Part shown: piece by piece, positions 1 to 61,065 of the stretch
Position numbering within the stretch: position 1 is the stretch's first letter
Layout of the letters: every line of letters starts with the position of its first letter
Virus record (IMG/VR): IMGVR_UViG_3300045988_147330
Location: 35,470 to 99,469 of that record
Origin: a virus
Direction: 5' to 3' (one strand)
DNA: 64,000 nucleotides
Program-made: the position numbers and the translations under genes
The notes under the pieces: generated by a model
What the model was told of the DNA's origin: nothing
What the model saw: the letters and a program-made list of their open reading frames with translations, nothing else
The model's database searches: none

Positions 1-154
1 TCACACATTCAAGTATGAATATTGTCCATTATTCCCTATTGATATAGAAGAACTGGAGAAGTTTGTTACTGACAGGCTTCCTACATTGAAAGGCAAAGAC
101 TTTAGAATTGTATTTTAAAATGAAGAAGATATTAATGAGAAAAGAAATTAAAAT

Positions 155-343
155 ATGAAAAATGTGATTTTATTTGCTAGTTTAATATTAGCACTATCAT
201 CTTGTGATCGTAAATCTTATCATGTGAAGGGTGGTACTGCAATAACCATTGATGGAGATACCATTGAGTTTTATGGTGGAACAATTACTTATCCCTTTGC
301 CGGTCAACGTAGTATTAGTGGAATAGTTATTAAAGGGAAATAA
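155..343 (+). CDS. small putative lipoprotein
   Basis: 62-aa ORF; hydrophobic N-terminus ending in lipobox-like LSSC (MKNVILFASLILALSSC). Confidence 0.5.
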   Translation: MKNVILFASLILALSSCDRKSYHVKGGTAITIDGDTIEFYGGTITYPFAGQRSISGIVIKGK

Positions 344-352
344 TATTGAGAT

Positions 353-568
353 ATGGAAATAAAGAACGTAGGACAACTTAGAAAAATAATTGAGAATCTT
401 TCCGATGATTACGAAATAGAGATGCGTGTTAGACGCAAATTGACGGATGAAGAATTGAAAAATTGCAGATACCCTTACCCTTATGATACAGATTATTTAA
501 CTCTAGAATTTGACGATATAGGCGTTTCTTGCAAAGTATTGTGCTTGGGTGTAACTTCTAATGAATGA
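353..568 (+). CDS. hypothetical protein
   Basis: 71-aa ORF in tightly packed plus-strand gene train. Confidence 0.5.
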   Translation: MEIKNVGQLRKIIENLSDDYEIEMRVRRKLTDEELKNCRYPYPYDTDYLTLEFDDIGVSCKVLCLGVTSNE

Positions 569-798
569 ACGGTATGGAAATAAATAGCGGAATAATAATA
601 GATGGAGTGCTGCATGAAATGATTGAACTGATTGATGCGTCTAGTCTAAATTTCGATTGCAGTAAATGTTCGTTGAATAAAAAATGCAATAAGTGTAAGA
701 TGAGGAATGAATTATATCTGTGTGATGTGATGGGTTGTTTCTTCTTTGTCAATCGTGGTAAAGTAACGGATATTAAAACAGAGGAGGATAAGGAATGA
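565..798 (+). CDS. hypothetical Cys-rich protein
   Basis: 77-aa ORF; 4-nt start/stop overlaps with both neighbours; CSKCSLNKKCNKC cluster. Confidence 0.5.
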   Translation: MNGMEINSGIIIDGVLHEMIELIDASSLNFDCSKCSLNKKCNKCKMRNELYLCDVMGCFFFVNRGKVTDIKTEEDKE

Positions 799-1253
799 AA
801 CAGGTATTATCAATCGAACAGATGAAGCACTTGAAGGAGCTTGGGCTAGATACAAGTGATGCAAGCATGGTATTAATAGCCACGGATGATGATGGTTGCG
901 AATTGTTATGGGAAGATGCTGAAAAAGCAATTAAGCACCATTGGTACAATGTCCATTTTAATCTATATTACGTTGACACTAGTAGTTATGATCATTCCTT
1001 AAAAAAAGAGTGTGGAGTTTTTACCTTGCAGGATATTCTCGGCAAGTTACCGCGACACATAAATGACTTTGGTACAAAATATAAGCTGCACATTGAACCT
1101 ACTTTTGCTGGACCTTGGTGTATAAGTTATCAAATAGGCATATGTGAACCATTTGTTTTTAAATTGTCAGGAAATCTATTGGATGCAGCCTATGATATGC
1201 TGTGCTGGTGTATTGAAAAAGGATATGTTAAAGTTGGAGAGGAGGAAAAGTAA
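795..1253 (+). CDS. hypothetical protein (paralog of 26276..26665)
   Basis: Shares N-terminus MKQVLSIEQMK.L..LG.DTS.ASM and C-terminal L.DAAYDMLCWCI with 26276..26665. Confidence 0.6.
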   Translation: MKQVLSIEQMKHLKELGLDTSDASMVLIATDDDGCELLWEDAEKAIKHHWYNVHFNLYYVDTSSYDHSLKKECGVFTLQDILGKLPRHINDFGTKYKLHIEPTFAGPWCISYQIGICEPFVFKLSGNLLDAAYDMLCWCIEKGYVKVGEEEK

Positions 1254-1568
1254 ATGGATATAGTACCTATTGTAACAAAAGATGATCTTTCTAAAGAACA
1301 GATAGAGTATCTACAAAAACAACAAACAGAATATAAATTGATTAAAAAAGTTAAGAGGAATCCAGGGCATATATTATTCTCTTTTAACGTTAAGACAGGG
1401 GAGATAAAGAGAGCTTCTATTATACATAATGTTTCTATAGGACTGAATGGGCTTCCTATAACTAGGGCTGAAACGGTCATAGAACCTAATTGCTATTATG
1501 AACAAGCCTTAAATGAAAAGAATTTTAGAAAAAAATTGAGGAAATCAGGATTATTAAAAAACGAATAA
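1254..1568 (+). CDS. hypothetical protein
   Basis: 104-aa ORF, AGGAGG-like motif upstream, abuts previous stop. Confidence 0.5.
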   Translation: MDIVPIVTKDDLSKEQIEYLQKQQTEYKLIKKVKRNPGHILFSFNVKTGEIKRASIIHNVSIGLNGLPITRAETVIEPNCYYEQALNEKNFRKKLRKSGLLKNE

Positions 1569-9297: not shown

Positions 9298-9539
9298 TGA
9301 TAAAAGTGGATATACCAGAGCCGTTTATAGACGGTGATAATACGATGGTTAACATTACATCTGATTCATTCTGCTATTCTAGCATTGACTCACGGTACGA
9401 AGGGTTTCAGAGTGCGTATAAGGATGGGAATATTAATCAGAAGATACAGGGTAAACTAGAGATTATTGCAGATCAATTCAAAGAACTAATAAAAATCATT
9501 GAGGATAATGGAAAGACATTTGTTAATACAGGAGTGTGA
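9294..9539 (+). CDS. hypothetical protein
   Basis: 81-aa ORF, ATGA overlap. Confidence 0.5.
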   Translation: MMIKVDIPEPFIDGDNTMVNITSDSFCYSSIDSRYEGFQSAYKDGNINQKIQGKLEIIADQFKELIKIIEDNGKTFVNTGV

Positions 9540-9552
9540 GAGAGAAGAGGAA

Positions 9553-10017
9553 ATGAAGAAATTACGCAAGCAGCAGAACGATCTTATCAAGAAAGGTCGT
9601 ATGGTTGAATGTTCTCGCGTAACAGCCAAGATAAAGGAGTTCCAGGAAGCATATATAAAGGCTTATCCTGACGGTAAGTATGTAAGAGGTATGGAGATTA
9701 TCAAAAAGATGTCAGATGATGAAAAAACTGATTGGATGATGTATATTAATGCTATTGCTTTCTGTGCTGATATTATACATTCATCCTCTATTGAGCTTAA
9801 TGAAATGCTAAAGAAGGTACTTCCAGGGTCTAGTCTTCAAATGTTTGAAACACTTGAAAAGGTAGGTACTATGGCAAAGAATCAAATTATGTGGATGGAT
9901 AACAATGTGGATGAGGAATATCAGGACGATTTTGCCAAATATGCTGACGAGATAACCATTATGCTTTTATCATTTGTTAAAAATAAATTTTTGCCGCGAA
10001 AGTCAACTACTTACTAA
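9553..10017 (+). CDS. hypothetical protein
   Basis: ORF 9499..10017 trimmed to ATG 9553 (MKKLRKQ), just after the previous stop. Confidence 0.5.
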   Translation: MKKLRKQQNDLIKKGRMVECSRVTAKIKEFQEAYIKAYPDGKYVRGMEIIKKMSDDEKTDWMMYINAIAFCADIIHSSSIELNEMLKKVLPGSSLQMFETLEKVGTMAKNQIMWMDNNVDEEYQDDFAKYADEITIMLLSFVKNKFLPRKSTTY

Positions 10018-10019
10018 GC

Positions 10020-10182
10020 TAAAGACTTGTAGATGTTGATTAGACTAAGCACTTTGGGTGCTACGTTAGGAGAGAATATATAGTTACCAAGGGGTGCTTG
10101 CTCAAGCCCCTTGCTCTAAGGTTAAAACCTCTCCATAACATTGTCGATGAGTATTTAACGGAGAAATCTGACTTATAGTAAA
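10020..10182 (+). ncRNA. candidate IscB omega-RNA scaffold
   Basis: Non-coding 163 nt directly 5' of iscB with nested helices: agcac/gtgct 10048-10062, ggagag/ctctcc 10069-10134, caagggg/ccccttg 10088-10113. Confidence 0.5.
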
Positions 10183-11427
10183 ATGGTTTATATAATTAAC
10201 AAACAAGGACAAGCACTTATGCCAACTGAAAGGTTTGGTAAAGTGAGAAGGCTATTAAAGAATGGTCTTTCCCACGTTGTGTGCCGTATCCCATTCACAA
10301 TTCAATTAGATTATGACACAACAGATTATACGCAGCCCATAAGTTTGGGTTTAGATGCTGGTAGCAAGCATATCGGCATATCAGCAACAACAAGTGAAAA
10401 GGAATTGTATGCAGCAGATGTGGAACTTAGAAATGACATTGTAGAGAAACTATCTACTCGTAGAGAACAAAGAAGAACTCGTAGGAGTAGGCTTCGTTAT
10501 CGCAAGGCGCGTTTCAATAATAGGGTTTCATCTAAACGCAAGGGTTGGCTAGCACCATCTATTGAAAACAAAATTCAAACTCATTTGACTGTTGTAGAAA
10601 AAATACATAAGTTCCTACCGATAACTAATATCGTAGTTGAAACTGCTTCCTTTGATATACAGAAGATTAAGAATCCAAGTATATCTGGAAGTGAATACCA
10701 ACAAGGAGAACAACTTGATTTCTTTAATGTGCGTGAGTATATTTTGTTTCGTGATGGTTATACTTGCCAACATTGTAAGGGTAAAAGTAAAGATAAGATC
10801 TTGAATGTGCATCACATTGAGAGTAGAAAGACGGGAGGGGATAGCCCAAATAACTTGATTACTCTTTGCGAAACTTGCCACAAGGCATATCATAGAGGTG
10901 AGTTTGAGTTAAATGTAAAACGTGGAAAGTCCTTTAGAGATGCCGCCTTTATGGGAATTATGCGATGGAGTCTCTATGATAGACTAAAGAATATCTATCC
11001 TAATGTAAATATGACTTTTGGTTATATCACGAAAAATACCCGTATCACTAACAATCTTCCTAAAGATCATTATGTTGATGCAAGGTGTATAAGTGGTAAT
11101 CCTGTGGCTAAACCTTTAGGTTATTATTTCTATCAGAAGAAAGTAAGATGCCAAAATAGGCAGATACACAAGGCTAATTTCTTAAAGGGTGGCAGGAAGA
11201 AACTCAATCAAGCACCATTCTTAGTGAAAGGTTTTAGGTTGTTTGACCTGGTTGAATACCAAAAGGATTTGTATTACATATTTGGAAGAAGAAGTAGTGG
11301 TTCCTTTGATATTAGGAAACTTGATGGAACTAAAGTGAATAAAGGTTCTATCAATTGCAAGTATTTGCGATTGATAGACAAAAGAAAAAGTATATTAACT
11401 GAAAAGAGAATGCAAGTAAATTTATGA
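10183..11427 (+). CDS. iscB: IscB-type RNA-guided nuclease (PLMP/RRXRR + split RuvC + HNH)
   Basis: GQALMPT (PLMP); LGLDAGSKHIGIS (RuvC-I); RREQRRTRRSRLRYRKARF (Arg-rich bridge helix); VVETASFD (RuvC-II); CQHC...VHHIESR..NNLITLCETCH (HNH); DHYVDARCI (RuvC-III); 414 aa. Confidence 0.8.
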   Translation: MVYIINKQGQALMPTERFGKVRRLLKNGLSHVVCRIPFTIQLDYDTTDYTQPISLGLDAGSKHIGISATTSEKELYAADVELRNDIVEKLSTRREQRRTRRSRLRYRKARFNNRVSSKRKGWLAPSIENKIQTHLTVVEKIHKFLPITNIVVETASFDIQKIKNPSISGSEYQQGEQLDFFNVREYILFRDGYTCQHCKGKSKDKILNVHHIESRKTGGDSPNNLITLCETCHKAYHRGEFELNVKRGKSFRDAAFMGIMRWSLYDRLKNIYPNVNMTFGYITKNTRITNNLPKDHYVDARCISGNPVAKPLGYYFYQKKVRCQNRQIHKANFLKGGRKKLNQAPFLVKGFRLFDLVEYQKDLYYIFGRRSSGSFDIRKLDGTKVNKGSINCKYLRLIDKRKSILTEKRMQVNL

Positions 11428-11624
11428 CACGAGAGGAAATACATAAAAACGTTCTTACAATAAGAAATTATTATTTCAGTATTCAAAACAAGCTAGATAA
11501 TGGGTATAAAATTTCCGATTTGGATATAGATTCGGAAACGCACAACAAAATGATTGATGATACCATAAAATCAGCCATTGAAGATTATAAAATGATTCTT
11601 GTTTTGGAAAAATACAAATTATAA
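11424..11624 (+). CDS. hypothetical protein
   Basis: 66-aa ORF, ATGA overlap with the iscB stop. Confidence 0.45.
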   Translation: MTREEIHKNVLTIRNYYFSIQNKLDNGYKISDLDIDSETHNKMIDDTIKSAIEDYKMILVLEKYKL

Positions 11625-11628
11625 AATC

Positions 11629-12081
11629 ATGAAAAAGAAAGAAATAGACGAAGGATATATTGTAGGTGACTTTTATATAGTTAAAAGCCCTATCAAAGAT
11701 GGATGGCTTCACGTAGTGAATATAAAAACATCTTGGCAGATAAAGGTGATGATGGGAGCGAACACGGCAAAGTTTCTAAGCCTTCCACAACAGGAGATAT
11801 TTGACAGGATTAACGGAATATACATTCAATCCATGATGTCTTTATACGATTCAGATTATGCCTTGAAAATAGCTAAAGATGCTGTGTCTTATATGTCTGA
11901 AAAGGCAAAAAAGGTGGAGAAGGTGAAAAAGGTGGAGAAGAATGAAAATGAAGATATTGAAAAGGTGAAGAAAGATGAGTTTATGATGAAGATAGCCACA
12001 TCTTCCGATGAAGAAATCATGGACATGATCATAAATGGGGAAATAAAGTACGAATATTTCAAACAAGAACAGGAGGATTAA
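11629..12081 (+). CDS. hypothetical protein (cassette gene X1, paralog of 13601..14047)
   Basis: MKKKEIDEGYIVGDFYI...QQEIFDRINGIYIQSMMSLYDS.YAL shared with 13601..14047; start set at ATG 11629. Confidence 0.65.
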   Translation: MKKKEIDEGYIVGDFYIVKSPIKDGWLHVVNIKTSWQIKVMMGANTAKFLSLPQQEIFDRINGIYIQSMMSLYDSDYALKIAKDAVSYMSEKAKKVEKVKKVEKNENEDIEKVKKDEFMMKIATSSDEEIMDMIINGEIKYEYFKQEQED

Positions 12082-12501: not shown

Positions 12502-12600
12502 ATGCAAGACTATATTTCAGATTGGTTCATTCCTATGGATTTCGGTAATGATATGCCGGACGAAGAACCTAACGGTGAGGATAATTTTAATTTTGAATGA
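12502..12600 (+). CDS. micro-ORF (32 aa), paralog of 14397..14489
   Basis: MQDYISDWFIPMDFGND.PDEEP...DNFN conserved at both loci, each preceded by AGGAGG. Confidence 0.5.
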   Translation: MQDYISDWFIPMDFGNDMPDEEPNGEDNFNFE

Positions 12601-13487
12601 ATATGGAAAAGAAATTTGAGCTAACAGATAACTTTATAATCAATGCTTTTGGAGTGAAGTTATTCCAAATCAAGTGTACAAAGTCTTTCAAATATGCCAA
12701 GGAAGGTGATTTGGGAGGATATGTTGAGAAAGATGAGAACTTAGACCAAGAAAGCAATGCTTGGGTGTCCGGCAATGCTGAGGTGTCCGGCGATGCTTGG
12801 GTGTCCGGCAATGCTGAGGTGTCCGGCGATGCTCGGGTGTACGGCAATGCTCGGGTGTACGGCGATGCTCGGGTGTCCGGCGATGCTGAGGTGTCCGGCG
12901 ATGCTCGGGTGTACGGCAATGCTCGGGTGTACGGCGATGCTCGGGTGTACGGCGATGCTCGGGTGTACGGCAATGCTGAGGTGTCCGGCAATGCTGAGGT
13001 GTACGGCAATGCTGAGGTGTCCGGCAATGCTTGGGTGTCCGGCAATGCTCGGGTGTCCGGCAATGCTTGGGTGTCCGGCAATGCTGAGGTGTCCGGCGAT
13101 GCTCGGGTGTACGGCAATGCTCGGGTGTACGGCAATGCTGAGGTGTCCGGCAATGCTTGGGTGTACGGCGATGCTTGGGTGTACGGCAATGCTCGGGTGT
13201 ACGGCAATGCTGAGGTGTCCGGCAATGCTTGGGTGTCCGGCAATGCTGAGATAGACAACAATAATAAACATTGCGGATTTGACTGTTTCGGTTCTGCCAA
13301 CCGCCACACCCATGCCTACCTGACAAAAGAAAACAAAGTGGAAATAACATGCGGATGCTTCCGTGGGAGTATTGAAGAGTTTGAAAAGAGAGTGGAAGAA
13401 ACCCATTCGGGCACAATCTATGAGAAGCAGTATAAAGCCATCATCGATGTTATTAAAATTAAATTTGGGTTGACTGATTTGATATAG
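12597..13487 (+). CDS. hexapeptide-repeat protein, G[ND]A[EWR]V[SY] x ~27
   Basis: Unique N-terminal domain (FELTDNFIINAFGVKLFQIK...GDLGGYVEKDENL), ~165-aa perfect 6-aa repeat, unique Cys/His-containing C-terminal domain; ATGA overlap with upstream ORF. Confidence 0.7.
   Translation: MNMEKKFELTDNFIINAFGVKLFQIKCTKSFKYAKEGDLGGYVEKDENLDQESNAWVSGNAEVSGDAWVSGNAEVSGDARVYGNARVYGDARVSGDAEVSGDARVYGNARVYGDARVYGDARVYGNAEVSGNAEVYGNAEVSGNAWVSGNARVSGNAWVSGNAEVSGDARVYGNARVYGNAEVSGNAWVYGDAWVYGNARVYGNAEVSGNAWVSGNAEIDNNNKHCGFDCFGSANRHTHAYLTKENKVEITCGCFRGSIEEFEKRVEETHSGTIYEKQYKAIIDVIKIKFGLTDLI
12753..13250 (+). repeat. 18-bp tandem array ggc[a/g]atgct[tgg/gag/cgg]gtgt[c/a]c, ~27.6 units
   Basis: Direct reading; 13 of 18 positions invariant across all units, open in all six frames. 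Confidence 0.95.
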
Positions 13488-13600: not shown

Positions 13601-14047
13601 ATGAAAAAGAAAGAAATAGACGAAGGATATATTGTAGGTGACTTTTATATTCTCAAAGATATAATTAAAGATGGATATATTCACATAATAAATATAAAAA
13701 CCATGTGGCAGATAAAGGTATACATGGGAGAAAATGCAGCAAGTTTCCTTTGTCTTCCACAACAGGAAATATTTGACAGGATCAACGGAATATATATTCA
13801 GTCCATGATGTCTTTATATGATTCAGAATACGCCTTAAACATAGCTAAAAATGCAAAATCATACATGGCTCGTAAAGCTAAGAAGGTTAAAAAATCTGAT
13901 GAGAATGAAGATATAGAAAAGGTGAAAAGAGATCAGTTTATGATGAAAATAGCTTCCTCTTCTGATGAGGAAATTATGGATATGATTGTCAATGGAGAAA
14001 TTAATTATGAATATTTTAAACATGACAAGGAAAAGGAGGATGTATGA
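13601..14047 (+). CDS. hypothetical protein (cassette gene X2)
   Basis: Paralog of 11629..12081 along the full length. Confidence 0.65.
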   Translation: MKKKEIDEGYIVGDFYILKDIIKDGYIHIINIKTMWQIKVYMGENAASFLCLPQQEIFDRINGIYIQSMMSLYDSEYALNIAKNAKSYMARKAKKVKKSDENEDIEKVKRDQFMMKIASSSDEEIMDMIVNGEINYEYFKHDKEKEDV

Positions 14048-18569: not shown

Positions 18570-18900
18570 CGAATTTGAAAACTACGACAGGAAGTTAATC
18601 AAACTAAATAGTGACACTGCCATTTTGCTGCACATATTCAAGAAAAAACCGAACCACCACTTCGAGGATTGGATGGTTCTTCAAGACAATGAGGAATACT
18701 TCAAAAAGGAATGTGTTCCTGATTACGAAGATGCCGCCAGGCAGTTTATCAAGCAGTTTGAAGGAGAAGAGTGCATGGCTTTTGTGATTGCATTGAAAAA
18801 CGAACTTGAAAGAATGATACAAGAAGATGAGTACAAACGAAATCAAGCTAAGGGATTACCAGGAGGTGGGGATAACCCGTCTGAGAAATTCCCTGACTAA
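18550..18900 (+). CDS. hypothetical protein
   Basis: 116-aa ORF; 74-nt overlap with the helicase start. Confidence 0.45.
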   Translation: MNTDYVDEFENYDRKLIKLNSDTAILLHIFKKKPNHHFEDWMVLQDNEEYFKKECVPDYEDAARQFIKQFEGEECMAFVIALKNELERMIQEDEYKRNQAKGLPGGGDNPSEKFPD

Positions 18901-21229
18901 TCATAAGCATGTCATATTTTCAGCCTGTGTAAGTTACGGCAAAACGGTCATAATGAGTTTTATGGCTAAAGGTGCTGTTGAAAAGGGGAATAAGGTGCTT
19001 ATCGTATCCCACAGATCTGAACTTATGACACAGACAGGGGGAACGTTGGAAAGAGTTGGCATACAGGCTGAATACATCTCTCCTAAACACAGGAACATAC
19101 CTAAAGGTCTAGTAGTATCCGCAATGGCTCAAACTCTCCGTAGAAGGCTCGAAAAACCCGAATGGGTTGAATGGATTAAGAGTGTAAAATTAGTTCAGAT
19201 TGACGAGTGTTTTCGTGGAGATGTAGAAATATTAACAGATAAAGGATATGTAAGATTTGATTCTTTGCAAGGTAACGAAAGGGTTGCACAATATACAGAT
19301 AATGGCAACATTGAATTTGTAAAGCCATTGCGATTTATAAAACGCTACCATGAAGGAGAAATGTGTAAATTAACACTGTATAGAGGGAAATATGTATATA
19401 TGACTCCTAACCACAATCAGATATATAAAATAAAAGGGAAAGAAGGTATATATTCTGATTGTGTAAAAAATATAAAATTTAATATCCTTAAATATATACC
19501 TATTAATGGGAAAGGATGTGGATATAATGATTTATTAACTGATTTAGAAAGATTATTCATAGCCATACAGGCTGATGGTACATTTCAACATGAATGTATT
19601 GAATACGACAGTTATTCAATAAAACTTACAAGACCTAAAAAAATAAATCATTTTTTAGATATATCTAAAAACATAGAATGCAGGGAAATAAAATGTAATA
19701 GAAAAAACACACGTAGATGGATGTGCAAAATACCAAAAGGAAATGCAAAACTTCTATCTACTCATTTTTCTATAGAAATGGGGTATGACAGGGCTGTTGA
19801 TTTTATAAATGAAGTTGTAAAATGGGATGGGAGCGTTATAAGTGATAATTTATTTTATTATTCTTCTGTTGTGAAAGAAAATGCTGATTTTGTATCATCA
19901 GTAGCGGTTCAAGCTGGATATAGAGCATACATTATTGTTGAAAAGGATAATAGAAAATCCCATTATAAAGATGTGTATAGAGTGTTTATGCACAAAACAA
20001 GTTATATAAATGGGCAAAATATCAAAAAAGAATATGTTGAATATAATGGGTATGTATATTGTGTTGAAGTACCATCCCATAATATAGTTGTGCGTGCGAA
20101 TGAAAGTTTTACATTCATATCAGGTAATTGTCATACCTCTGACGCGGACTTTCTCTTTGAATCCGGTTTGCTTGATGATAAGTATGTAGTAGGTCTTACA
20201 GGAACCCCGATGAGAAGTGGGAACCAAAGGCAGCTTGGTATGAACTATGAAGAGATTGTAGAAACCGCTCAGATACAGGATATGATGGAGCGGGGAAACA
20301 TAACCAAGTTGAGGACGTTTACAGTTGATGCACCCGACTTGTCTAAGGTTAATACCGATTATCGTACAGGTGACTTCGATAGCAGGCAGATGGGGGCGGT
20401 ATTCAATAAGTCTGTACAGTACAAGGGGGTAATTGAAAACTATATGCGCATTTGCCCGATGAAGAAAGCAATTTGTTTTGATGCCACACAGGCAAATGCG
20501 ATAAGAATGTGTTCCGAGTTTAATGAAGCTGGTATTCCTGCAAAATTTCTCATATCAGGCATAGATAAGAACAAGCTAGATGAGTTGGAATTATATGAGA
20601 AATATAAGCATTTTACAGGAAACAGGGAGCAGCTTATTAAGGATTTCCATGACGGTAAATTCACTGTTATATGCAATAGTGGCATATTGTCTACAGGATA
20701 CGATGAAACAAGTATAGAAGTCTGTATATTAAACCGTGCTACTCAATCCGTTCAGTTCTATATTCAAGCAACAGGTAGGGCAATCCGGCTTCATCCTGGT
20801 AAAACGGAAGCATTTCTTCTTGACTTCGGTGGTAACATATCACGGCTTGGTAAGTTTGAGAAAGAACGTAAATGGGCTTTATGGCATAATAAGGGAAAAT
20901 GTGAGGGAATACAAGGGGTAAAAGAATGTAAACAGTGCGGTAAATATATTGCTATAACCGCTTCGGAATGTCCTTTTTGCGGATATGTATATCCAACCGA
21001 GAAAGAAATCAGGATGGCAGAGTTGCAGGAACTAGTAGGAGATTTAAAATTCGAGCAAATGACACCTACGCAATTTTTCCAATATGCGGAACTTAAAGGA
21101 TATAATGTTTATTGGGCGATCCGGCAGTTGTATATCAGAAATACGGAATCTGATTTTCGTAAAGCCATGAAAGAATGCGGATATTCTAGCAAGTTTATAT
21201 GGGGATATATCCAGAGAAACAAAAAATAA
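18827..21229 (+). CDS. SF2 DEAH-box DNA helicase interrupted by an intein
   Basis: LRDYQ; Walker A SYGKT; DE-C[intein]C-H restores DECH; LTGTP; QATGRAIR; C-terminal CxxC...CxxC zinc ribbon. Confidence 0.85.
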   Translation: MSTNEIKLRDYQEVGITRLRNSLTNHKHVIFSACVSYGKTVIMSFMAKGAVEKGNKVLIVSHRSELMTQTGGTLERVGIQAEYISPKHRNIPKGLVVSAMAQTLRRRLEKPEWVEWIKSVKLVQIDECFRGDVEILTDKGYVRFDSLQGNERVAQYTDNGNIEFVKPLRFIKRYHEGEMCKLTLYRGKYVYMTPNHNQIYKIKGKEGIYSDCVKNIKFNILKYIPINGKGCGYNDLLTDLERLFIAIQADGTFQHECIEYDSYSIKLTRPKKINHFLDISKNIECREIKCNRKNTRRWMCKIPKGNAKLLSTHFSIEMGYDRAVDFINEVVKWDGSVISDNLFYYSSVVKENADFVSSVAVQAGYRAYIIVEKDNRKSHYKDVYRVFMHKTSYINGQNIKKEYVEYNGYVYCVEVPSHNIVVRANESFTFISGNCHTSDADFLFESGLLDDKYVVGLTGTPMRSGNQRQLGMNYEEIVETAQIQDMMERGNITKLRTFTVDAPDLSKVNTDYRTGDFDSRQMGAVFNKSVQYKGVIENYMRICPMKKAICFDATQANAIRMCSEFNEAGIPAKFLISGIDKNKLDELELYEKYKHFTGNREQLIKDFHDGKFTVICNSGILSTGYDETSIEVCILNRATQSVQFYIQATGRAIRLHPGKTEAFLLDFGGNISRLGKFEKERKWALWHNKGKCEGIQGVKECKQCGKYIAITASECPFCGYVYPTEKEIRMAELQELVGDLKFEQMTPTQFFQYAELKGYNVYWAIRQLYIRNTESDFRKAMKECGYSSKFIWGYIQRNKK
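19208..20128 (+). mobile_element. intein (307 aa) with LAGLIDADG homing-endonuclease core
   Basis: Starts CFRGDVEILTDKG; block B TPNH; LERLFIAIQADGTF and FINEVVKWDGSV (two LAGLIDADG motifs); ends ...FISGN followed by +1 Cys. Confidence 0.75.
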
Positions 21230-21284: not shown

Positions 21285-22013
21285 ATGAAAAATAACATTA
21301 ATCCTTGGGAAGTGTTTGATGAGATTGAATGTTCCCATAATCCTGAATATATTGTTTGTGTGTCACATCTTAGACATTACACGAATATTTTTGGCATAGA
21401 CAAAAGGCTTGTAGACTTTCTTGGAATGGAAAAGAATACAATATTAGATATCGAAACATTTTGTTTTGGCGGAATGGATGTTTTCGGAATAAAAGAAGAT
21501 TGTGTATCTGTAATAGAAGATTGTAAAAGACAAAGGGAAGCAAAGAAAGAAGCCTTGGAGAAAAACAGGAAATTGATAGCCATGCTAAAATTGAAACGTG
21601 AAAATATGTGCGGCATAGGTACAAGAAAGGTGAAATTACTGCTTAATAAAAAGATAAAACAAGGAGATTTTACAGCTAAAATTTACCGTGTTGCATTGGA
21701 ATTACAAGATTATAATATAAAGGCTAAAGGTGCTCCGTTTCCTTACTCGGAAAAGATGTATGCAAAGAAAGAAGATTTGATTGATAAACTTATCGAATTA
21801 TACAAAAATATACAACTACCTTTTGGTCGTTCAGAGGATAAAAATAAAAGAGTTTCTTTTATCGTATATTTTGATCTTCCTTTAGGTAATCAAATTAGTT
21901 TTCATTCTACAATAAAAAGAGATATACCTCTATACGGGAAAGAGTGGGATGGATTGGTAAACAGTACATTGGACAAGTTAGAAAAAGAAATAAAACAATA
22001 CTTAAACATTTAA
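21285..22013 (+). CDS. hypothetical protein
   Basis: 242-aa ORF. Confidence 0.6.
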   Translation: MKNNINPWEVFDEIECSHNPEYIVCVSHLRHYTNIFGIDKRLVDFLGMEKNTILDIETFCFGGMDVFGIKEDCVSVIEDCKRQREAKKEALEKNRKLIAMLKLKRENMCGIGTRKVKLLLNKKIKQGDFTAKIYRVALELQDYNIKAKGAPFPYSEKMYAKKEDLIDKLIELYKNIQLPFGRSEDKNKRVSFIVYFDLPLGNQISFHSTIKRDIPLYGKEWDGLVNSTLDKLEKEIKQYLNI

Positions 22014-22015
22014 TC

Positions 22016-22939
22016 ATGGGAAAGAATTTACTTAATAACGATGGTAAAATTGCCTTGTTTCACGAAACGATAAGGCTTGACTTTAATCTGCCTAAATACT
22101 CCGTTATAGAGCAGAAAGATCCTAATCCAAGTGTAATGTCTTATGATTTTCTTAAACAGTACATGGAAAACAATGATAAGGAAGGAGTCGCGGAATTTAA
22201 TCTTACCGTTTCACCGACAATGCTTGATTCTGTAAAAACAAACCAGGAGCACAATCAGGTAAGAACCTCTCTTTTTGACAGAAAACACAAGGAAAGTTCA
22301 TGGTTGAAAAAAGTTAAGGATTATGTAGACGAATACAGAAGATCCAAGTTTGACGTAATACATTTCTTTTCTGAGGTTAAGATACAGACAGAGAACGAGA
22401 TGAAGCAATACAGGGATAGGATAAAAGACTATATACTGATGCTAGGTTATGCTGAAAGGTCCGGTCAATATGCCTTAAAAGAAAAGCTATTCCGAAACAT
22501 GGTGATATGCAAATACGAAAGCATATTGTTTAGCAAAGGATTATACAAGGCTATATCAGAGGAAAATATTATGAAGTTTGCAAAAGGATGCCCGAAAAAT
22601 CTATGCCTTGATTATATTTCTGACTATACTAGAATCATACCGTTTGACATAATTAGGAAAAAGACGGATATAGACAAATATGAAATCTTTGATAATTATG
22701 TTATCCTACACTACGATTTTGATAACAACGGAACAGATTTACCGTCTGACAAGAAAAAAGAAGAGGTGGAAAAAAGAAAAGACCCTATTCTGTTTGGTGT
22801 TATTGCAGGAAGTAACAAACTATACTTTATAGGTGATTGGATTGATGAGTATTGCGATTTGAGGTTCGATGATGTGGTAAAACAATGCACGGACGATTTC
22901 TTGTCAGAAAACATTTCTTTGGATGGTCTTGCAAAATAG
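22016..22939 (+). CDS. hypothetical protein
   Basis: ORF 21944..22939 trimmed to ATG 22016 (MGKNLLN), directly after the previous stop. Confidence 0.6.
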   Translation: MGKNLLNNDGKIALFHETIRLDFNLPKYSVIEQKDPNPSVMSYDFLKQYMENNDKEGVAEFNLTVSPTMLDSVKTNQEHNQVRTSLFDRKHKESSWLKKVKDYVDEYRRSKFDVIHFFSEVKIQTENEMKQYRDRIKDYILMLGYAERSGQYALKEKLFRNMVICKYESILFSKGLYKAISEENIMKFAKGCPKNLCLDYISDYTRIIPFDIIRKKTDIDKYEIFDNYVILHYDFDNNGTDLPSDKKKEEVEKRKDPILFGVIAGSNKLYFIGDWIDEYCDLRFDDVVKQCTDDFLSENISLDGLAK

Positions 22940-33741: not shown

Positions 33742-34401
33742 ATGAATACAAGAAAAAGAGAAATTCCTTCATTAGAAGGAGAAGTATGGAAAGACATAAA
33801 AGGATTTGAATCAATTTATTCAATTTCTAATTTCGGAAGAGTATATTTACATGGACGATATGTTTTTGCAGGAAAAAAAATTGGTAAAAGATGGCAACCA
33901 CCACAATTTATGACACCTCAAGTAAATCAAAGTGGATATTTAAATCTATTTTTACGAGATAATGGAAAAATAGAAAGAAAATATATTCATAGATTAGTAG
34001 CAGAGCATTTTATACCAAATATTTATAATTATCCATGTGTAGACCATAAAGATACAAACACTAAAAACAATCATGTATCAAATCTTAGATTCTGTACACA
34101 TAAAATGAATTCAAACAATCCAAATACTCTAAATAAGATGTCTAAATCTCATAAAAAAAGGGTATTTGAAAAAAGAATGCGTCATTCATCTGTTGTTGGA
34201 ATTAATATTAATGATTATAATGATGTCAGAACATATTTTTCAATGACAGATGCTAAAAATGATGGATTTAATCCAAATGGTATTAGTAAATGTTGTTTGA
34301 AAAGAATAAATCAACATCATGGATTTAAATGGATGTATCTAAATGAATACGAAACCCTTATCAATAAGTCAAAGAACAAATCTTCCAATGCAGAGATTTA
34401 A
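33742..34401 (+). CDS. free-standing HNH homing endonuclease (NUMOD4 + HNH_3)
   Basis: EVWKDIKGFESIYSISNFGRVY (NUMOD4); VDHKDTNTKNNHVSNLRFCTHKMN (HNH). Confidence 0.85.
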   Translation: MNTRKREIPSLEGEVWKDIKGFESIYSISNFGRVYLHGRYVFAGKKIGKRWQPPQFMTPQVNQSGYLNLFLRDNGKIERKYIHRLVAEHFIPNIYNYPCVDHKDTNTKNNHVSNLRFCTHKMNSNNPNTLNKMSKSHKKRVFEKRMRHSSVVGININDYNDVRTYFSMTDAKNDGFNPNGISKCCLKRINQHHGFKWMYLNEYETLINKSKNKSSNAEI

Positions 34402-35380: not shown

Positions 35381-35504
35381 AAAATTTCAAAGCGTAACTT
35401 ATTGTGTTTCAGATAGTTTAAACTTGTTAAAGTAAGTTATTTCCTTGTGGAATATTTTTTCTATTTGTATATTAGCGCAATAATTTAAAAAATGAGGATT
35501 TTTT

Positions 35505-36772: not shown

Positions 36773-38095
36773 TTAAATATCTAATGTGCCATCAAAATAA
36801 TAACCTCTATTAAATTTTATAACAACATCTTCCAATGGGAGAAGGCTTCTGTCAACTTGTGAAAGAAATATACCTATGGATTCATATCCACCTTTTACAA
36901 AGCATTTTTCTCCTTTAAACAATATTTGCATTCTTACCCATGTGCTATTGTCTTTTTTAGTAGATGGTCTTACATCAAAATCAAGAATATCTATATATTC
37001 GTCAACGAGTTTGTCTATTTTTACATCTTTCCCATCAAACCTTCTTGATACTTTTATTCCTAAATCGCCAATTTTTGTCATGTGGCTATTATTTTTAGTT
37101 AAAATTTTATTAATCAAATTTCTAGAATCACAGTGCATCAACATTCCCATATAACTTGACACGGAGTTTGGATTGTTTCGTTTTAATGCAAAGTTTTTCT
37201 TTATTCTTTTTCTTATTTTAGTATGTCCTGGCATGAAAACAAATCCACCGAAATCTATTCCTTCTGATACAGGAAATATTCTGTAATTTTTCTTCATTTC
37301 CAGTTTCTTTTCATACCAAAGATAATTTCTTATTCTCCATAACCATTCATGCAACTGTTTTTTATCATGGGACAGTATTACCATATCATCAGCAAACCTA
37401 AAATAATGTTTTACTTTAAACTGCTCCTTTATGACGTGATCTAACGATCTCAACACTAAATGGCTTCCTATCTGTGCATCAGGATTTCCAATAGCTAAAC
37501 CCTTGTTGCTGTAATTAAGCGTATTCATAAGCCATAATGCATCCCTATCTTTCAGGTCTTTACTATACGCTTTTTTATAAACACTATGTCTTACAGAAGG
37601 ATAAAACTTCTTAATGTCCATTTTTAAGACATATATTTTCCCGTTTTTGTCCATTTCAAGCAACGTTCGCTTCATCTTCTTTACTAGAGAATGTTTCTTA
37701 ACTTTGCTTGTAATACCTCTTTTGGGCAAACAGTTGTACGAATCAAGTGTAAGACTTTTCGTCCATCTATCCATCATTGGTATCAAAAGACTATGTTGGA
37801 TAATCCTGTCAGGATAAAATGGTAATTTATGTATCTCCCTTGTTTTTCCTGCATCAGTCACTTTCTCCATTATCTCATACTCACTTACTTGGTATGATTT
37901 GTTTTTGAGCATTTGATAAACATTTTGATGGTATTCATCCTTATGTTTCTCATAATCTCTGACTCCCCTATGATTCCTTTTGCCTTTTTTCGCTTTTTTA
38001 GCAGCAGATATTATATTATCCATGCTGCATATTGTTTCAAAAATATTATTTACTCTTTTCATTTTTTCGTGCTTTTTCTTTGTCCGTTGAGCCAA
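36773..38095 (-). CDS. DGR-type reverse transcriptase
   Basis: RT motifs incl. FYPSV, LAIGNPDAQIGSH and catalytic FRFADDMVIL; sits directly 3' of a TR that matches a VR with A-specific mismatches. Confidence 0.9.
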   Translation of the reverse strand: MAQRTKKKHEKMKRVNNIFETICSMDNIISAAKKAKKGKRNHRGVRDYEKHKDEYHQNVYQMLKNKSYQVSEYEIMEKVTDAGKTREIHKLPFYPDRIIQHSLLIPMMDRWTKSLTLDSYNCLPKRGITSKVKKHSLVKKMKRTLLEMDKNGKIYVLKMDIKKFYPSVRHSVYKKAYSKDLKDRDALWLMNTLNYSNKGLAIGNPDAQIGSHLVLRSLDHVIKEQFKVKHYFRFADDMVILSHDKKQLHEWLWRIRNYLWYEKKLEMKKNYRIFPVSEGIDFGGFVFMPGHTKIRKRIKKNFALKRNNPNSVSSYMGMLMHCDSRNLINKILTKNNSHMTKIGDLGIKVSRRFDGKDVKIDKLVDEYIDILDFDVRPSTKKDNSTWVRMQILFKGEKCFVKGGYESIGIFLSQVDRSLLPLEDVVIKFNRGYYFDGTLDI

Positions 38096-38484: not shown

Positions 38485-40416
38485 TTAGGCTTGGGTTATT
38501 GTACAACGGAAGCCGCCACCGATGCTCGTGAACGCGATCGTAGGGGCAATGTACGCATTACCAGACCGCAAAGAACAATAGTCGTAGTCCGACCGACCAC
38601 CAAAGTAAACACCACGTCTTCCAATTTTACCCGAACCTGCACCCCCTGTAAACCAGTTATAATGGCATTCTCCCGTATGAAGTCCACCACCTTGAGTTTT
38701 ACCTATAAGACAGTCTTTAAAATTTTCAAGCTGATATCCTTCGCCTTTGTTCTTAGTACCAATTAAATCATAGATATTTTCAAACCCATACGATTCACCA
38801 GGATTTTTATCGGTTGATACATTGTCAGTAGTCATATTGTTTACCGACTTAGTTTGATATATGTCAATAGATGTGGAATCATGCATAACACAGTCTATTC
38901 CACTATACCACATCCATATATCTCCCCATCCTGCAATTCTTCCCCGTATCAGAGGTTGGGCAAAGCATACTTCAACTTCCCTGTCTGTAACCAACGCAGA
39001 ATCGGGAATGCTCCATCCTGTTACGCTGATTGTGAAAAATTTAACAACAACACCGGACATTTCCCCCTCTGCAAGTCCATTATGACCTTGGAAATTAAAA
39101 TAACGATAAGTGGAACCATCATAGGTGAAATCTGTATTTTGTTCAATATTGTTTTCCTTTGCGTATGACATCGCCAACTGTGCTTCAAACATTTTCAGTT
39201 TAGGACGATAATTATTGATTACTTGATCAAAATTATAAGTAGTTCCTGTTTCAGAAGCCTTGAAGCCAGCTCCATTTATTTTATAATAAACGTATGTCTG
39301 ATTATCATTCTTTTTAAATCTTATTCCTGTCATTTTACCCCAGCTTGAAGCATCAGGCGCAGAATCATTAGATGATATACCTTTTCCACATACAGATTGA
39401 GAATGAACATCTTTCGTTCTAAACTTTATAAACAAAAGGGTACACCACACATCCAAGTCAAATGCAAAAGCATTTGCGTATGGTAAATTAGATGATGTGT
39501 CTGTATTTTTATTTCTTGCATATTGTTCATAGTTAAAGCGTGAAATATTTGTTGTAGGCCATCCACCTGTAGTCATGATGTTTACGCCCAACATTCCTGC
39601 TCCAGTAGTACCCATAATGGTATTATCTCTAATTGATCTCTGTTTGTTATCTTTTATTACTGAATATCCGATACACACAGCAAATGGAGCTACAAAGTCG
39701 GCTGTATCACCGCCATAAGTAAATGGTATATCTCCAACAATCCTTCTTTCATAAGTATCATCAGTTCCTCCATTAATTACCCAAAACGGCTTGGTATTTA
39801 CTAACATAACATCAGTGCCATCGTCTACTACATCAGTGCCATCTATAATAATATTTGAAGGTGTTCCGTCAGCCATTTTAAATAGATTGGTTTGGTCGAA
39901 ATATCCTACGACTTTTCCGTCCTTTACTTTAGCCAGGCGAAATGCATTCAATATAGGATGAGATACCTTAAATTCCTCTTTTCCTATCCATGTCTGATAG
40001 ACAGGATCACTTTGCCCACGAGACATTTCTACACCATATACATTTCCTTGTTGTTGCTTTAATGAATCTAGAAATTGTTTGTCTATATCGGTAAAATCAT
40101 TTGTAGACAATGATTTGCCTTCCACTTTATCCACCTTTTTATCTAAGGCTGTCTTTTGCGGATCAGATACAGGCTTTTCCGCGTCAGATGTATTGTCTAC
40201 TTTAGAAAGTCCAATGTTTTCTTTTGTTATATTGACGTTCCCTTTCCTATATGAACTCTCATTGTTACCTTTTACACCTGTTACCATACCTTCTCTTATC
40301 TGAGATATAGTGACCGACTTGTTCTTCTTCGGTTCATCTGTAACGCATGGTATTATCTCTGTACCCGTAACGGTTTCAACGGGAGTCATTTCCGAAATTT
40401 TAAGATTTTCTTCCAT
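38485..40416 (-). CDS. DGR target: tail fibre / receptor-binding protein with C-terminal variable (CLec-like) region
   Basis: N-terminal fibre motif GNVNITKENIGLSKVDNTSDAEKPVS; C-terminus GVYFGG....C.L..GNA..AP........GGGFRC overlaps VR. Confidence 0.85.
   Translation of the reverse strand: MEENLKISEMTPVETVTGTEIIPCVTDEPKKNKSVTISQIREGMVTGVKGNNESSYRKGNVNITKENIGLSKVDNTSDAEKPVSDPQKTALDKKVDKVEGKSLSTNDFTDIDKQFLDSLKQQQGNVYGVEMSRGQSDPVYQTWIGKEEFKVSHPILNAFRLAKVKDGKVVGYFDQTNLFKMADGTPSNIIIDGTDVVDDGTDVMLVNTKPFWVINGGTDDTYERRIVGDIPFTYGGDTADFVAPFAVCIGYSVIKDNKQRSIRDNTIMGTTGAGMLGVNIMTTGGWPTTNISRFNYEQYARNKNTDTSSNLPYANAFAFDLDVWCTLLFIKFRTKDVHSQSVCGKGISSNDSAPDASSWGKMTGIRFKKNDNQTYVYYKINGAGFKASETGTTYNFDQVINNYRPKLKMFEAQLAMSYAKENNIEQNTDFTYDGSTYRYFNFQGHNGLAEGEMSGVVVKFFTISVTGWSIPDSALVTDREVEVCFAQPLIRGRIAGWGDIWMWYSGIDCVMHDSTSIDIYQTKSVNNMTTDNVSTDKNPGESYGFENIYDLIGTKNKGEGYQLENFKDCLIGKTQGGGLHTGECHYNWFTGGAGSGKIGRRGVYFGGRSDYDYCSLRSGNAYIAPTIAFTSIGGGFRCTITQA
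38512..38615 (-). repeat. DGR variable repeat (VR)
   Basis: 12 mismatches to TR, all at TR plus-strand T = coding-strand A; ends 8 codons before the stop. Confidence 0.9.
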
Positions 40417-42435: not shown

Positions 42436-42480
42436 GCATAAAATTCGTTAAACAATTTGGTTATGAGCAGTTTTGTGCAG

Positions 42481-42488
42481 TATATTTG
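42481..42488 (+). promoter_or_regulatory. -7 promoter motif TATATTTG (plus strand, divergent)
   Basis: 26 nt upstream of ATG 42514. Confidence 0.4.
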
Positions 42489-42513
42489 CTTAAAAATAAA
42501 AAATATAATATCA

Positions 42514-42882
42514 ATGAATGTATTAAGTTTATGTGATGGTATAGCCTGCGGTAGAATTGCTCTTGAACGAGCAGGGATAAAGGTGAATAAGTATTACGCA
42601 AGCGAGATAAATGAACCGTCTATTAAGGTGGCATTAGACAATTATCCTGATATCATAGAGTTAGGTGATATCAGGAATTGGAAAGAATGGAATATAGAAT
42701 GGAAAGATATTGATCTGTTGATTGGAGGTACACCATGCCAGGATTTCTCCCGACTTGGAAAGGAGAAGCTAAACTTTGATGGTGAACGTTCTGGGCTGTT
42801 CTTTCAATATGTGAACATACTTAATCATATAAAACAGTTTAATCCAAATGTAAAATTTAGGCAAATGCGGCTATGTGTATAA
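42514..42882 (+). pseudogene. 3'-truncated C5 cytosine DNA methyltransferase
   Basis: Motif I LSLCDGIACG and motif IV GGTPCQDFS are present. The ORF ends right after NPNVKF, where motif ENV is expected. No downstream continuation was found. Confidence 0.7.
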
Positions 42883-43116
42883 AGGATTGAAACTTAGCGA
42901 GCGTAGTTGGACTTGTCCGGAATGTGGTACACACCACGACCGGGACTTCAACGCAGCTTGTAATATCAAGAAATTTGGCTTGAAAGCCCTACCCACGGAG
43001 CGAGGGAAAGTCAAGCCTGTGGACTGCCCAACGGTGGATGAACGACCTCGTGTCCTAAAAAGCTGCGGCAGGAAGAAGCAGGAAAAAACTCATGCCTTTA
43101 GGCGTGGGGAGTTCAC
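42860..43116 (+). pseudogene. tnpB: TnpB 3' fragment (second family) with omega-RNA-like tail
   Basis: [36 protein letters not shown] (zinc finger + RuvC-III), then a structured non-coding-looking tail with terminal hairpin catgcc-ttta-ggcgtg ending gagttcac. Confidence 0.7.
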
Positions 43117-43290
43117 ATGATAAAGTTATGGAGCTTACCGAGCATCCATGTGGAAGTAATGCAGACTACAGAAGTATTACTTTTTACTGTGATGACTGCC
43201 CTATAGGGCGTTTTGGGACAAATATGTGTACAAAAGAACAACAATATTCTAAATAATCTTCAAAACCGAACAGAAATGTAATATAAGAAA

Positions 43291-54850: not shown

Positions 54851-54890
54851 ACGCCCTATCAACTGTGAAGTTAGTAGGGCGTATTTTTTT
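54851..54890. terminator. intrinsic terminator after tRNA-Cys, also abutting the TMP stop
   Basis: 8-bp stem acgcccta/tagggcgt followed by attttttt. Confidence 0.6.
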
Positions 54891-60800: not shown

Positions 60801-61065
60801 TTTCGATCTGGACAAGCATGTCCATTTTCTTATTTGATTTACCATTTCCTACTTTAGATGCGCTTTCATTTGCATTCTTTATTTTTTCAGCTACTTCTGA
60901 CAATTGTTTGTTAATCTTACCAATATCAGTCAATACAGGCTTGAAGGACATTTCCTGATTGAAAGTGTCCTGTAACTTCTTCTGTATGTCTTTTATCTGT
61001 TTGTCAAGACCTGAATCATCTAGTCCTATCTTGAATTTTAATGCTCCTAAATCAATATCAGCCAT
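54889..61065 (-). CDS. tail tape measure protein (2058 aa)
   Basis: Very long, mostly helical/coiled-coil protein; core GQIRSAGVLRGQELRQLTEAGIPALDAL resembles the TMP core region; hydrophobic segments mid-protein. Confidence 0.8.
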   Translation of the reverse strand: MADIDLGALKFKIGLDDSGLDKQIKDIQKKLQDTFNQEMSFKPVLTDIGKINKQLSEVAEKIKNANESASKVGNGKSNKKMDMLVQIENLSNKIVEATREYDRLEKTYRNLGNAGGDKGMSTRKANLESQKKAINDLVSELNRLKTAYSLTANSAPKLSITDERELNLLRQQYEMEIARTKEMDRQAAKQEQANRRMQQANQRYLQFLSGQSGLALGMPEGSAEDLNRKIAAIQKRLELLTKFKVEIPLNSSQVTKADTLIQRLQGRLEKLQSSLKQTSTNELLNINPTSINQANNLISELTNRRNALNTTDANYNRTLTLLNRKIQEHNKFVNEATAYGVKMQQTNQKNAASSKEFTEELTKQSRMMREFVNTLKTYAGFYFFRDMFQELVNIRGEFELQQVSLRAIIQDARRADQIFNQIKGLAVISPFQFGELVSYTKQLAAFQIPVNELYGTMKSLADVSAGLGVDMGRIILAYGQIRSAGVLRGQELRQLTEAGIPALDALRKKLEEVRGVAQTTDDVFNAISTRQVPFEYIKEMFTTMTEDGGMFYKMQEIQAASLKGMVSNLADAYKVMMNDIGEANDSVLKGIVGSITDAMTNWRYFAKAIEGVAVGYAALKALQLARIAMLGKEVVATTNTLKAEKLREANLLKQAAMYRTLTTAEKWKIATSTQLSAVEIAAAVNSGKMSAEMAKRILATNMLTQAERHLLVTELKLTGAEAARVLSMTRTTMWMNRIKLATFGLTNSLKTLWLTIKANPLMTILTVAGLVAEAFHVMSARSEEFNQKIKDSAKSFRESYSDLQKDLDKINFDKLTPENIQTLDTKQLQLYEETLNGILSKYGNIGQYIIQNSKKIDDQKSRVEYLQNSTAELEQTYKRAAENADILFKADKATSTGVFGDSFSDLLKDYEESAVKLTSSGKNIEEFRGQIVQASKEIINMGKGTKEWRNELTELINKGASAATIVEKIRSLAETSGDARTFEIFKNKTHFDSEELLKEYDKLKVGIMGETKELEKSFNVFANSLDKELKKVFVGIDVNKLNEAQKDFIRIQSENFATTSELGENAKKLFNEFIDKKYAVEIELDDKEAQEGLTGWKKSLDEITGHKWTIAIKAADVKSMEDYFKAVKQEYKDAKSSIDNLQKTIDMYVSQGKVKKLGDEYKISGIVSPDEAEQVQQTVYEINAANEAMSKATGTAKQFNLELEKQKKSKGRDPLADLWKNRLSLLESAYSKFKDLSVNIGKEEAKKQIDAIYGPQALKLGVDIVYDKQAIIDNYNKAAKELEKRVPQDAVKNARKASELSSEIYVDAAKKVMKRITDEFDRYRNKYDFFQDILGITGNTDLALDLAVQFSGDTSTMAESFAAGIYNNLQSALAGMNLDLGVSVVPDTSSFTSMNQYINQVQEAIKGNKNIGDEQKQVIQGMIDAWKGYFGEMARQYANDLAEYGDYYTQVDIIREKYRKKIATAEGMGNTSLSSALQKSEEMDLFKLTTDYQNFFGAVEAMSMEAANTVADKVREMLNSAFRSGAISAREYMKELERVDKQIEKMMKNNESDLQTYMKDGIEGLYNKRYDAGKSTMMAGMNDMKQAMADIEKASNAYQEAMKNGDEEAANAALSAKSEAESRYKSGQESVKTGKGMMAAAQNALQTVNLIDFIITNIYNAIKAMQQVISSVSNLMDSMGKDTESGFMREMNQFSEAMGVMNEGVKKSWDSFKSGDFAGAIGSAISMPLDVIATFNRQHDKRLQKHIEDLEFESKKLTNIYNMLEKEFDHLIDPERLDEVTSQQVSNLKEQLQIQKDILSAEEDKKKSDREKVEEYKQSIKEIEYQIRYFTEELAKDLYSIDLKSWASQFGDALVDAWLNGEDAAKAYKDTVADVMRDVVKSWIQQQYIEKALKQVETTLFGTDGKGGMFADNKLDEEEVKNLGIILGSLESSFAEASGVVNEINNALGGMLTETKENAEGLSNAIAGVDENTFNQALGYINGMRYEMIVQSDLLRQLVSLNGGSAGTGGVNITAIQQAQLSILTQQLAATMAIKAALLSVVSIAPRSGGNAIKVIVD

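Follow-up and report, generated by a model that had tools for sequence, protein, structure and literature searches.

An IscB element between two phage genes

We examined a 64,000-nucleotide stretch of viral DNA (positions 35,470 to 99,469 of IMG/VR record IMGVR_UViG_3300045988_147330; below, "the window" is this whole stretch), in which an earlier, sequence-only reading had pointed to an open reading frame (ORF) for IscB, an RNA-guided OMEGA nuclease, with a candidate omega-RNA in front of it. The two lie on the plus strand and together make up a mobile element of 1422 bp (10002..11423), composed of the omega-RNA scaffold and an iscB gene that has no stop codon of its own. Its ends are defined by comparison of empty and filled sites, and there is no target-site duplication; 10002..11423 is an ISC/IS200-IS605-type element with discrete ends.

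The iscB ORF occupies 10183..11427 (plus strand, 414 aa), with its TGA stop (11425..11427) supplied by the flank, outside the element. Its coordinates are exactly those of the earlier reading, and each motif quoted there was located, in the order expected of IscB: GQALMPT (residues 9-15), LGLDAGS (55-61), the arginine-rich bridge helix RREQRRTRRSRLRYRKARF (93-111; RREQRR...KARF), VVETASFD (151-158), CQHC (195-198), VHHIESR (209-215), NNLITLCETCH (223-233), and DHYVDARCI (295-303). The Pfam model RRXRR aligns at 212 bits over residues 2-175, in support of the PLMP domain and the split RuvC, and Pfam HNH matches residues 195-238 (E 8.5e-11), inserted between RuvC-II and RuvC-III; it is the HNH insert that separates IscB from IsrB. 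The NCBIfam equivalog guided_IscB ('RNA-guided endonuclease IscB') scores 367.9 bits against a cutoff of 175, whereas the Cas9d model reaches merely 20.7 bits against a cutoff of 375. With RRXRR, HNH, and guided_IscB all matching and the RuvC segments present, the protein is not a plain HNH endonuclease. There is no recognition (REC) lobe, in keeping with the compact 414 aa.

The closest solved structures are OgeuIscB-type chains (E ~1e-52 with the single sequence and ~1e-66 with a family profile). The residues D58, E153, H210/H211, H296, and D299 align with the OgeuIscB catalytic set, which upholds the claim that all catalytic residues are present, and H210/H211, N224, and H233 are invariant in an alignment of 20 IscB family sequences. 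Residues 338-414 are also conserved across the family alignment; the C-terminal 111 aa, searched alone, gave zero PDB sequence matches. An AlphaFold2 model built from a shallow alignment (17 sequences, 93-96% identical) was unusable, with a predicted local distance difference test (pLDDT) score of 34. The ratio of nonsynonymous to synonymous change (dN/dS) against phage-borne relatives is 0.06-0.15, and IscB is under strong purifying selection among the phage-borne copies. Judged by its sequence, 10183..11427 is a genuine IscB with a complete catalytic set, for which RNA-guided cleavage is predicted.

Directly 5' of iscB, where the sequence-only reading had placed the omega-RNA, the Rfam HEARO covariance model (RF02033) matches 10002..10159 (plus strand; 79.1 bits, E 1.5e-15) over model positions 1-211, the full model. 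That reading took the upstream gap at 10020-10182 as the RNA region; RNA does lie there, but it starts at 10002, in the last codons of ORF 9499..10017, and not at 10020. The three helices it proposed (agcac/gtgct, ggagag/ctctcc, and caagggg/ccccttg) are all consensus HEARO helices, and in an alignment of 22 sequences (the window RNA and 21 relatives from viral and bacterial loci) compensatory changes are seen in each of them and in 36 of the 50 consensus pairs. The window RNA is a shortened variant. Aligned with its relatives it lacks a 46-nt hairpin and a second P1 hairpin, and because these two are absent it scores 79 bits, whereas full-length relatives of the same element family score 97-162 bits. 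The same architecture, with a short RNA and no hairpin at the far end of the element, also accompanies intact ORFs at other sites (loci L010, L012, L028, and L048).

Neither a second copy nor a solo omega-RNA was found within the window. At four other loci (L026, L027, L036, and L045) we observed an inverted fragment of 87 nt that shares 79% identity with a portion of the omega-RNA scaffold (window 10039..10125); it lies ~2.3 kb downstream of iscB on the opposite strand and may be a solo omega-RNA remnant. No terminator-like site was found from the upstream genes to iscB. A promoter scan, which does not cover Bacteroidetes promoters, returned sites no more numerous than in shuffled sequence.

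The ends of the element are set by its empty sites. At L003 and nine other loci of the same lineage, window position 10001 is joined straight to 11424, and the IscB cassette is located elsewhere. The empty-site junction in related phages reads ...GCCGCGAAA joined to ATGACACGAG, or, in a longer reading, ...AAATTTTTGCCGCGAAA followed by ATGACACGAG. Copies at differing sites are homologous from a start at GTCAAC or ATCAAC to an end at ...AAATTT, and the left end coincides with position 1 of the HEARO model.

The insertion is seamless with respect to the genes on either side. In the upstream phage ORF (9499..10017, plus strand) it replaces the TGA stop and adds four codons (STTY) from the start of the omega-RNA: empty alleles end CGA AAA TGA, with the TGA overlapping the ATG of the next gene, and the window reads CGA AAG TCA ACT ACT TAC TAA. 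The downstream phage ORF (11424..11624, plus strand, 66 aa) is left intact, its ATG being the first three bases of the target-adjacent motif (TAM) of the element, and the flank thus provides both the iscB stop and the start of the next gene (the ATGA overlap at 11424..11427). This overlap had been noticed in the earlier reading, which concluded that IscB was embedded in a phage operon and not a recent insertion. That conclusion does not hold. The two flanking genes already met in this ATGA before the insertion, and it doubles as the TAM; phages of the lineage retain the precise empty site. In a pattern scan of IMG/VR at the window site, 86 contigs had the empty junction and none the filled one, and the filled junction was found in neither IMG/VR nor the JGI metagenomes; so rare an insertion is presumably recent. 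The exact IscB protein is present on ~99-kb contigs, and IMG/VR holds 286 close relatives of it. Samples that contain the phage include ENA ERZ1690066 and ERZ1689449.

Insertion sites, predicted guide, and mobility

Among 20 distinct right flanks, 18 begin with ATGA, usually followed by A. ATGA makes up 0.73% of window positions, which gives P ~6e-37 for 18/20. The consensus TAM, ATGAA, is the reverse complement of TTCAT; at the window site (11424..11428, plus strand) it reads ATGAC and serves at the same time as the downstream ORF start and the IscB stop. Bacterial multi-copy relatives (Tissierella, Ohessyouella, and others) have the same GTCAA... start and likewise end immediately before ATGAA. 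No motif is common to the left-hand flanks of the copies. One 92-kb contig carries up to three element copies, and some copies are broken (L037 and L043). We also note that, among L253-L305, some hairpin-less tails adjoin non-ATGA sequence, for example ATTGCTAGCTTG in four loci, and ATAGATCTTGAA. At several sites ATAA stands in place of ATGA in an otherwise identical flank, so that either the TAM mutated after insertion or the variant is tolerated.

At 14 of the 20 sites the ATG of the TAM opens an ORF of 53 aa or more, whereas ~5% of the ATGA occurrences in the window are ORF starts. Surviving insertions are concentrated at gene starts, which may reflect either a target preference or selection in a compact genome. 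Where ATGAA coincides with a stop/start overlap, the element slips between translationally coupled genes with neither damaged, and this fit may explain its persistence in tightly packed phage genomes. In bacterial loci (L123/L137, L094/L103, and L131/L132) the ATGAA beside the element appears to open a frame (MK..., of which the first ~10 codons were seen); if this holds, insertion at gene starts may be general to this IscB family, beyond phages.

The predicted guide is encoded outside the element, directly 5' of the scaffold, by the 3' end of the upstream phage ORF (9986..10001, plus strand; AATTTTTGCCGCGAAA), its length of 16 nt being assumed by analogy with characterised IscBs. The window has a single occurrence of this 16-mer, and there the scaffold, not a TAM, comes next. 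The search that the earlier reading had suggested, with the ~16 nt 5' of the scaffold, led to phages: in five IMG/VR contigs the 16-mer is matched 16/16 and followed by ATGA, making a perfect predicted target; IMGVR_UViG_3300045988_131346 is one genome with a perfectly matching empty allele. Scored against the guide, the empty alleles (86 contigs) gave 5 matches at 16/16, 5 with one mismatch, 11 with two, and 70 with three to five, and ATGACA is present in all 86. Since the guide is the 5' flank, the predicted target is the phage's own unoccupied allele. The lineage shows the same polymorphism at two further insertion sites, where exact empty junctions number 23 and 72.

The far end of the window copy has lost what is expected to be the binding place of a Y1 transposase. 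Related copies of the 418-aa type keep a hairpin (CCCAYAAAC-loop-GTTTRTGGG) ~20 nt from this end. In the window type, a 46-nt deletion that removes the subterminal hairpin block (junction at 11416..11417, plus strand) joins the ORF directly to the element's final 7 bases, as seen in a 3'-end alignment and in single-stranded DNA folds of the window, L061, and L005 ends. Y1-binding hairpins at both ends are thus a property of the family and not of the window copy, in which the omega-RNA end keeps its P1 hairpin. Hairpin-less tails border no fewer than 12 distinct flanks of the ATGA type, and a single 92-kb contig contains three such tails.

Element bodies are mosaic. The window body is nearest to that of the hairpin-bearing L005 (94%), and its tail is of the L010 type. 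Some copies have a common right flank and a differing left flank, or vice versa, and such one-sided sharing suggests frequent recombination between copies. The hairpin-less form may have spread by gene conversion of the deletion, by its independent recurrence, or by mobility that does not depend on TnpA.

The transposase TnpA is itself scarce near these elements: none lies within 4 kb of 80 viral IscB copies, and a TnpA within 6 kb was seen at just three of 80 bacterial loci. Related IscB loci that carry a TnpA include L123, L096, and L109. In one phage of the lineage (L183; IMGVR_UViG_3300029996_000118, 1..1540), an IS605 element sits at the window equivalent of ~18644, upstream of a helicase gene, and consists of a Y1 TnpA (Pfam Y1_Tnp, 2e-40) and a divergent TnpB-like ORF (MLRAYKYRIYPT...). 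The same contig also bears an IscB element (L023). The tblastn probe used in these searches was an IS608 TnpA sequence that served as a probe only, and the L183 match was confirmed by Pfam.

Proposed homing between co-infecting phages and its alternatives

We favour, with a probability of roughly 0.72, the reading that a recent non-autonomous ISC-type (IS200/IS605) element has inserted at the ATGA junction of two co-directional genes in a ~99-kb Bacteroidales-type siphophage and there acts in RNA-guided homing among co-infecting phages. Read-through from the upstream phage genes would yield the omega-RNA, whose 5' guide would come from the terminal ~16 nt (9986..10001) of the gene upstream. 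The IscB-omega-RNA complex would recognise the guide sequence solely where ATGA directly adjoins it, that is, in the unoccupied allele of related phages, and the carrier genome would be protected by the element itself, which puts 1.4 kb between the guide match and the TAM. In a mixed infection, a break repaired from the element-bearing genome would copy the element in (homing), and a break left unrepaired would cost the competitor its genome. To account for movement to new ATGA sites, a Y1 TnpA acting in trans is invoked; the window copy, its far-end hairpin lost, may now rely on homing and recombination alone. The predicted cutting by IscB most likely serves the element's own retention and spread, incidentally harming competitors.

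Several of the observations above argue for homing. As in homing genes, the element is present or absent among close relatives, and the predicted target is rebuilt in the allele without it. Carriers and predicted cleavable non-carriers both occur in the natural population, which is a precondition for homing between co-infecting phages. Such homing between phages or plasmids has been discussed as 'non-restorative homing' (2026 review, PMC13565253). Among the roles that the sequence-only reading had offered, homing and inter-phage competition are the best functional reading; for host or plasmid targeting there is no evidence, the guide being simply the 5' flank.

Other observations weigh on the opposite side. 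The C-terminal ~75 aa of IscB, presumed to read the TAM, have no PDB match, and the family profile alignment ends at about residue 337. The ATGAC of the window site is the sole TAM with C at position 5 among the 20 sites; in Geobacillus IscB, single-base TAM changes abolished cleavage (PMC10055086). The omega-RNA is shortened, and its 79.1 bits are slightly under the Rfam gathering score of 83. Most of the 86 empty alleles, 76 in number, differ from the guide at 2-5 TAM-proximal positions. There is no TnpA in the window, where Pfam searches of 85 ORFs and the tblastn probe bear out the negative of the earlier reading, nor is there one within 10 kb past either window end. The TnpA of L183 is the sole one found in the lineage, and the ends and flanking motif of its IS605 differ from those of the IscB element. 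Finally, the far-end hairpin is gone, yet hairpin-less copies occupy many sites, which the TnpA model leaves unexplained.

The last of these points bears on a tentative extension of the homing reading, to which we give distinctly less weight than to the reading as a whole. The hairpin-less cassette may have been freed from TnpA and become an RNA-guided counterpart of the free-standing homing endonuclease genes of phages, spreading by cutting of empty alleles and recombinational copying. If so, neighbouring accessory genes and the cassette's own guide would be shuffled as it spreads, and new ATGA start-codon junctions would be reached through recombination or mismatch-tolerant cleavage, and not by transposition.

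The alternative that survives best, though we consider it unlikely, is that of an ordinary TnpA-dependent insertion sequence, moved by a Y1 transposase in trans, in which IscB merely puts the element back at the donor site after excision, by restorative homing among sister genomes, and spread between phages has no part. Such a mechanism is established for ISGst elements (PMC10055086), and it agrees with the canonical end architecture and TAM of the relatives, with the many insertion sites, each with precise ends, and with the Y1 TnpA of the one lineage phage (Y1_Tnp 2e-40). However, the window copy has no subterminal hairpin at what would be the TnpA 'left end', no TnpA lies in the window or in the 10 kb past it, and the IS605 of L183 differs in its flanking motif and has ends that look unrelated. 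Moreover, at three sites the filled allele and the empty one are both present, in separate phage genomes, which offers targets beyond sister copies.

We regard as highly improbable a stranded copy in decay, with RNA and ends eroding on the way to inactivation. The omega-RNA without two of its hairpins and under the Rfam gathering threshold, the deleted far-end hairpin, and the off-consensus TAM would all suit such a relic. The ORF is intact, however, with all catalytic residues, and dN/dS is 0.06-0.15; the part of the RNA that was retained is the covarying core, the short-RNA, hairpin-less form recurs with intact ORFs at the four loci L010, L012, L028, and L048, and an insertion this rare is young.

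Least credible of all is a domesticated phage gene, fixed in the early operon with a dedicated guide against hosts, plasmids, or rival phages: co-orientation with the operon, seamless translational junctions, strong purifying selection, and a great many near-identical copies among gut viral contigs would fit it, but 0 of the 86 IMG/VR lineage genomes carry the element at the window site, its position varies by genome so that the guide differs at each site and there is no conserved target, some copies are broken (L037 and L043), and in its ends and TAM it matches a transposable element.

Bacteria have already yielded both IscB elements and the logic of their TAMs, and homing during phage co-infection has been proposed on paper. 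What this locus adds to the homing reading is a natural system in which RNA-guided homing from phage to phage becomes directly testable: an abundant gut-phage lineage with filled and empty alleles at several sites, and with the predicted guide, TAM, and natural targets in hand. The compact 414-aa protein and its naturally shortened guide RNA may also be of interest for genome editing, neither being unprecedented.

Related systems and other features of the window

The nearest functional parallel is the IscB of ISGst5 from Geobacillus stearothermophilus, which has the TAM TTCAT and a scaffold that forms one transposon end, with the guide encoded just outside (Meers et al., PMC10055086), and whose guide production needs transcription entering from an upstream co-oriented gene (PMC10055086). 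The window element resembles the ISGst5 type in its scaffold as an end, its predicted guide outside, its expected need for read-through, its TTCAT/ATGAA TAM, and its lack of a target duplication, with the nuclease likewise aimed, as predicted, at the rejoined empty site. It differs in residing in a phage and not in a bacterial chromosome, in that no cognate TnpA was found, and in the loss of the far-end hairpin. Its scaffold is ~50 nt shorter, and iscB reaches the very end of the element, borrowing its stop from the TAM.

With OgeuIscB (PDB 7utn, 7xht, and 8csz) the protein shares the order PLMP - RuvC-I - bridge helix - RuvC-II - HNH - RuvC-III, the aligned catalytic residues, and an omega-RNA of the HEARO class. 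It is shorter (414 aa versus 496 aa), and its C-terminal ~75 residues have no detectable sequence similarity to the TAM-interacting domain of OgeuIscB, whose TAM, NWRRNA, is unlike that of the window (PMC12660989). As for the RNA, the long-range helix, central hairpin, small hairpin, and closing helix of HEARO RF02033 are present and covary in relatives, whereas the 46-nt hairpin and the second P1 hairpin of the model are absent.

The free-standing homing genes of T4, of the Seg/Mob type, offer a comparison at the level of behaviour. There too a nuclease gene lies between conserved phage genes and is present or absent among close relatives (PMC13565253), and there too the allele without the gene is expected to be cut during co-infection. 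Unlike these, the window element would find its target by RNA guide and TAM and not by protein, it has discrete transposon ends, and its discrimination between self and non-self would come from the insertion itself. IscB homologues (29-56% identity) also occur in deposited phages, namely Clostridium phage c-st, Staphylococcus Silviavirus, Ralstonia phages, and cyanophages, where most of them carry the label 'HNH endonuclease' or 'hypothetical protein'. For Silviavirus genomes, HEARO annotations exist (PMC13346280). In the literature on these deposited phage IscB/HEARO loci we found no analysis of ends, TAM, empty sites, or guide targets.

The window belongs to a siphovirus-type phage, with a tape measure protein at 54889..61065, a tail fibre with an endosialidase chaperone domain, and capsid and portal genes just past the window. 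A crAss-like phage, guessed at from the giant ORFs, was rejected, these being the tape measure protein and the endosialidase-chaperone tail fibre. The phage is distantly related to Bacteroides LoVEphage-like phages, and a megablast search of the region against deposited phages gave just two short unrelated matches. The sole close match in a bacterial genome is a contig binned with an Odoribacter metagenome-assembled genome; other bacterial relatives of IscB do not exceed 72% identity and come mostly from Firmicutes.

We considered whether the window encodes a full TnpB as a second OMEGA nuclease and rejected both candidates. The ORF at 21944..22939, a 'transposase' in PHROGs, has no Pfam match, and a Cas12f1-like TNB match belongs to an 81-aa remnant (42875..43117). 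This remnant holds just the C-terminal part of the TnpB zinc-ribbon (TNB) domain and follows a C5 cytosine DNA methylase ORF (42457..42882) that ends after ~100 of 324 model positions; a RAGATH-18-like RNA lies at 43016..43084 (31 bits, below gathering; E 0.003). Taken together, 42457..43117 has the look of a methylase gene interrupted by a TnpB element of which a stump is left.

Other genes of possible mobile character are scattered through the window. A free-standing ORF with HNH_3 and NUMOD4 domains (33742..34401) is a classical homing-endonuclease-type gene of the protein-guided kind. The helicase ORF at 18827..21229 has weak matches to Pfam intein-splicing domains and a ribonucleotide-reductase-like PHROG stretch, and may contain an intein. 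On the minus strand, a reverse transcriptase ORF (PHROG 1423, 1.6e-79) and a tail-fibre-like ORF lie side by side (36773..38095 and 38485..40416) and may form a diversity-generating retroelement.

Closer to the IscB element, 12597..13487 encodes a YdcK-type beta-solenoid repeat protein with 18-nt periodic repeats, whose frames are open in several registers on both strands and which has different numbers of repeats in contigs that are identical apart from this (L001 and the window). It is flanked by two paralogous ORFs (11599..12081 and 13601..14047; 78% nucleotide identity), and at one locus (L250) an IscB copy lies directly before the equivalent of the second paralogue (13601..14047).

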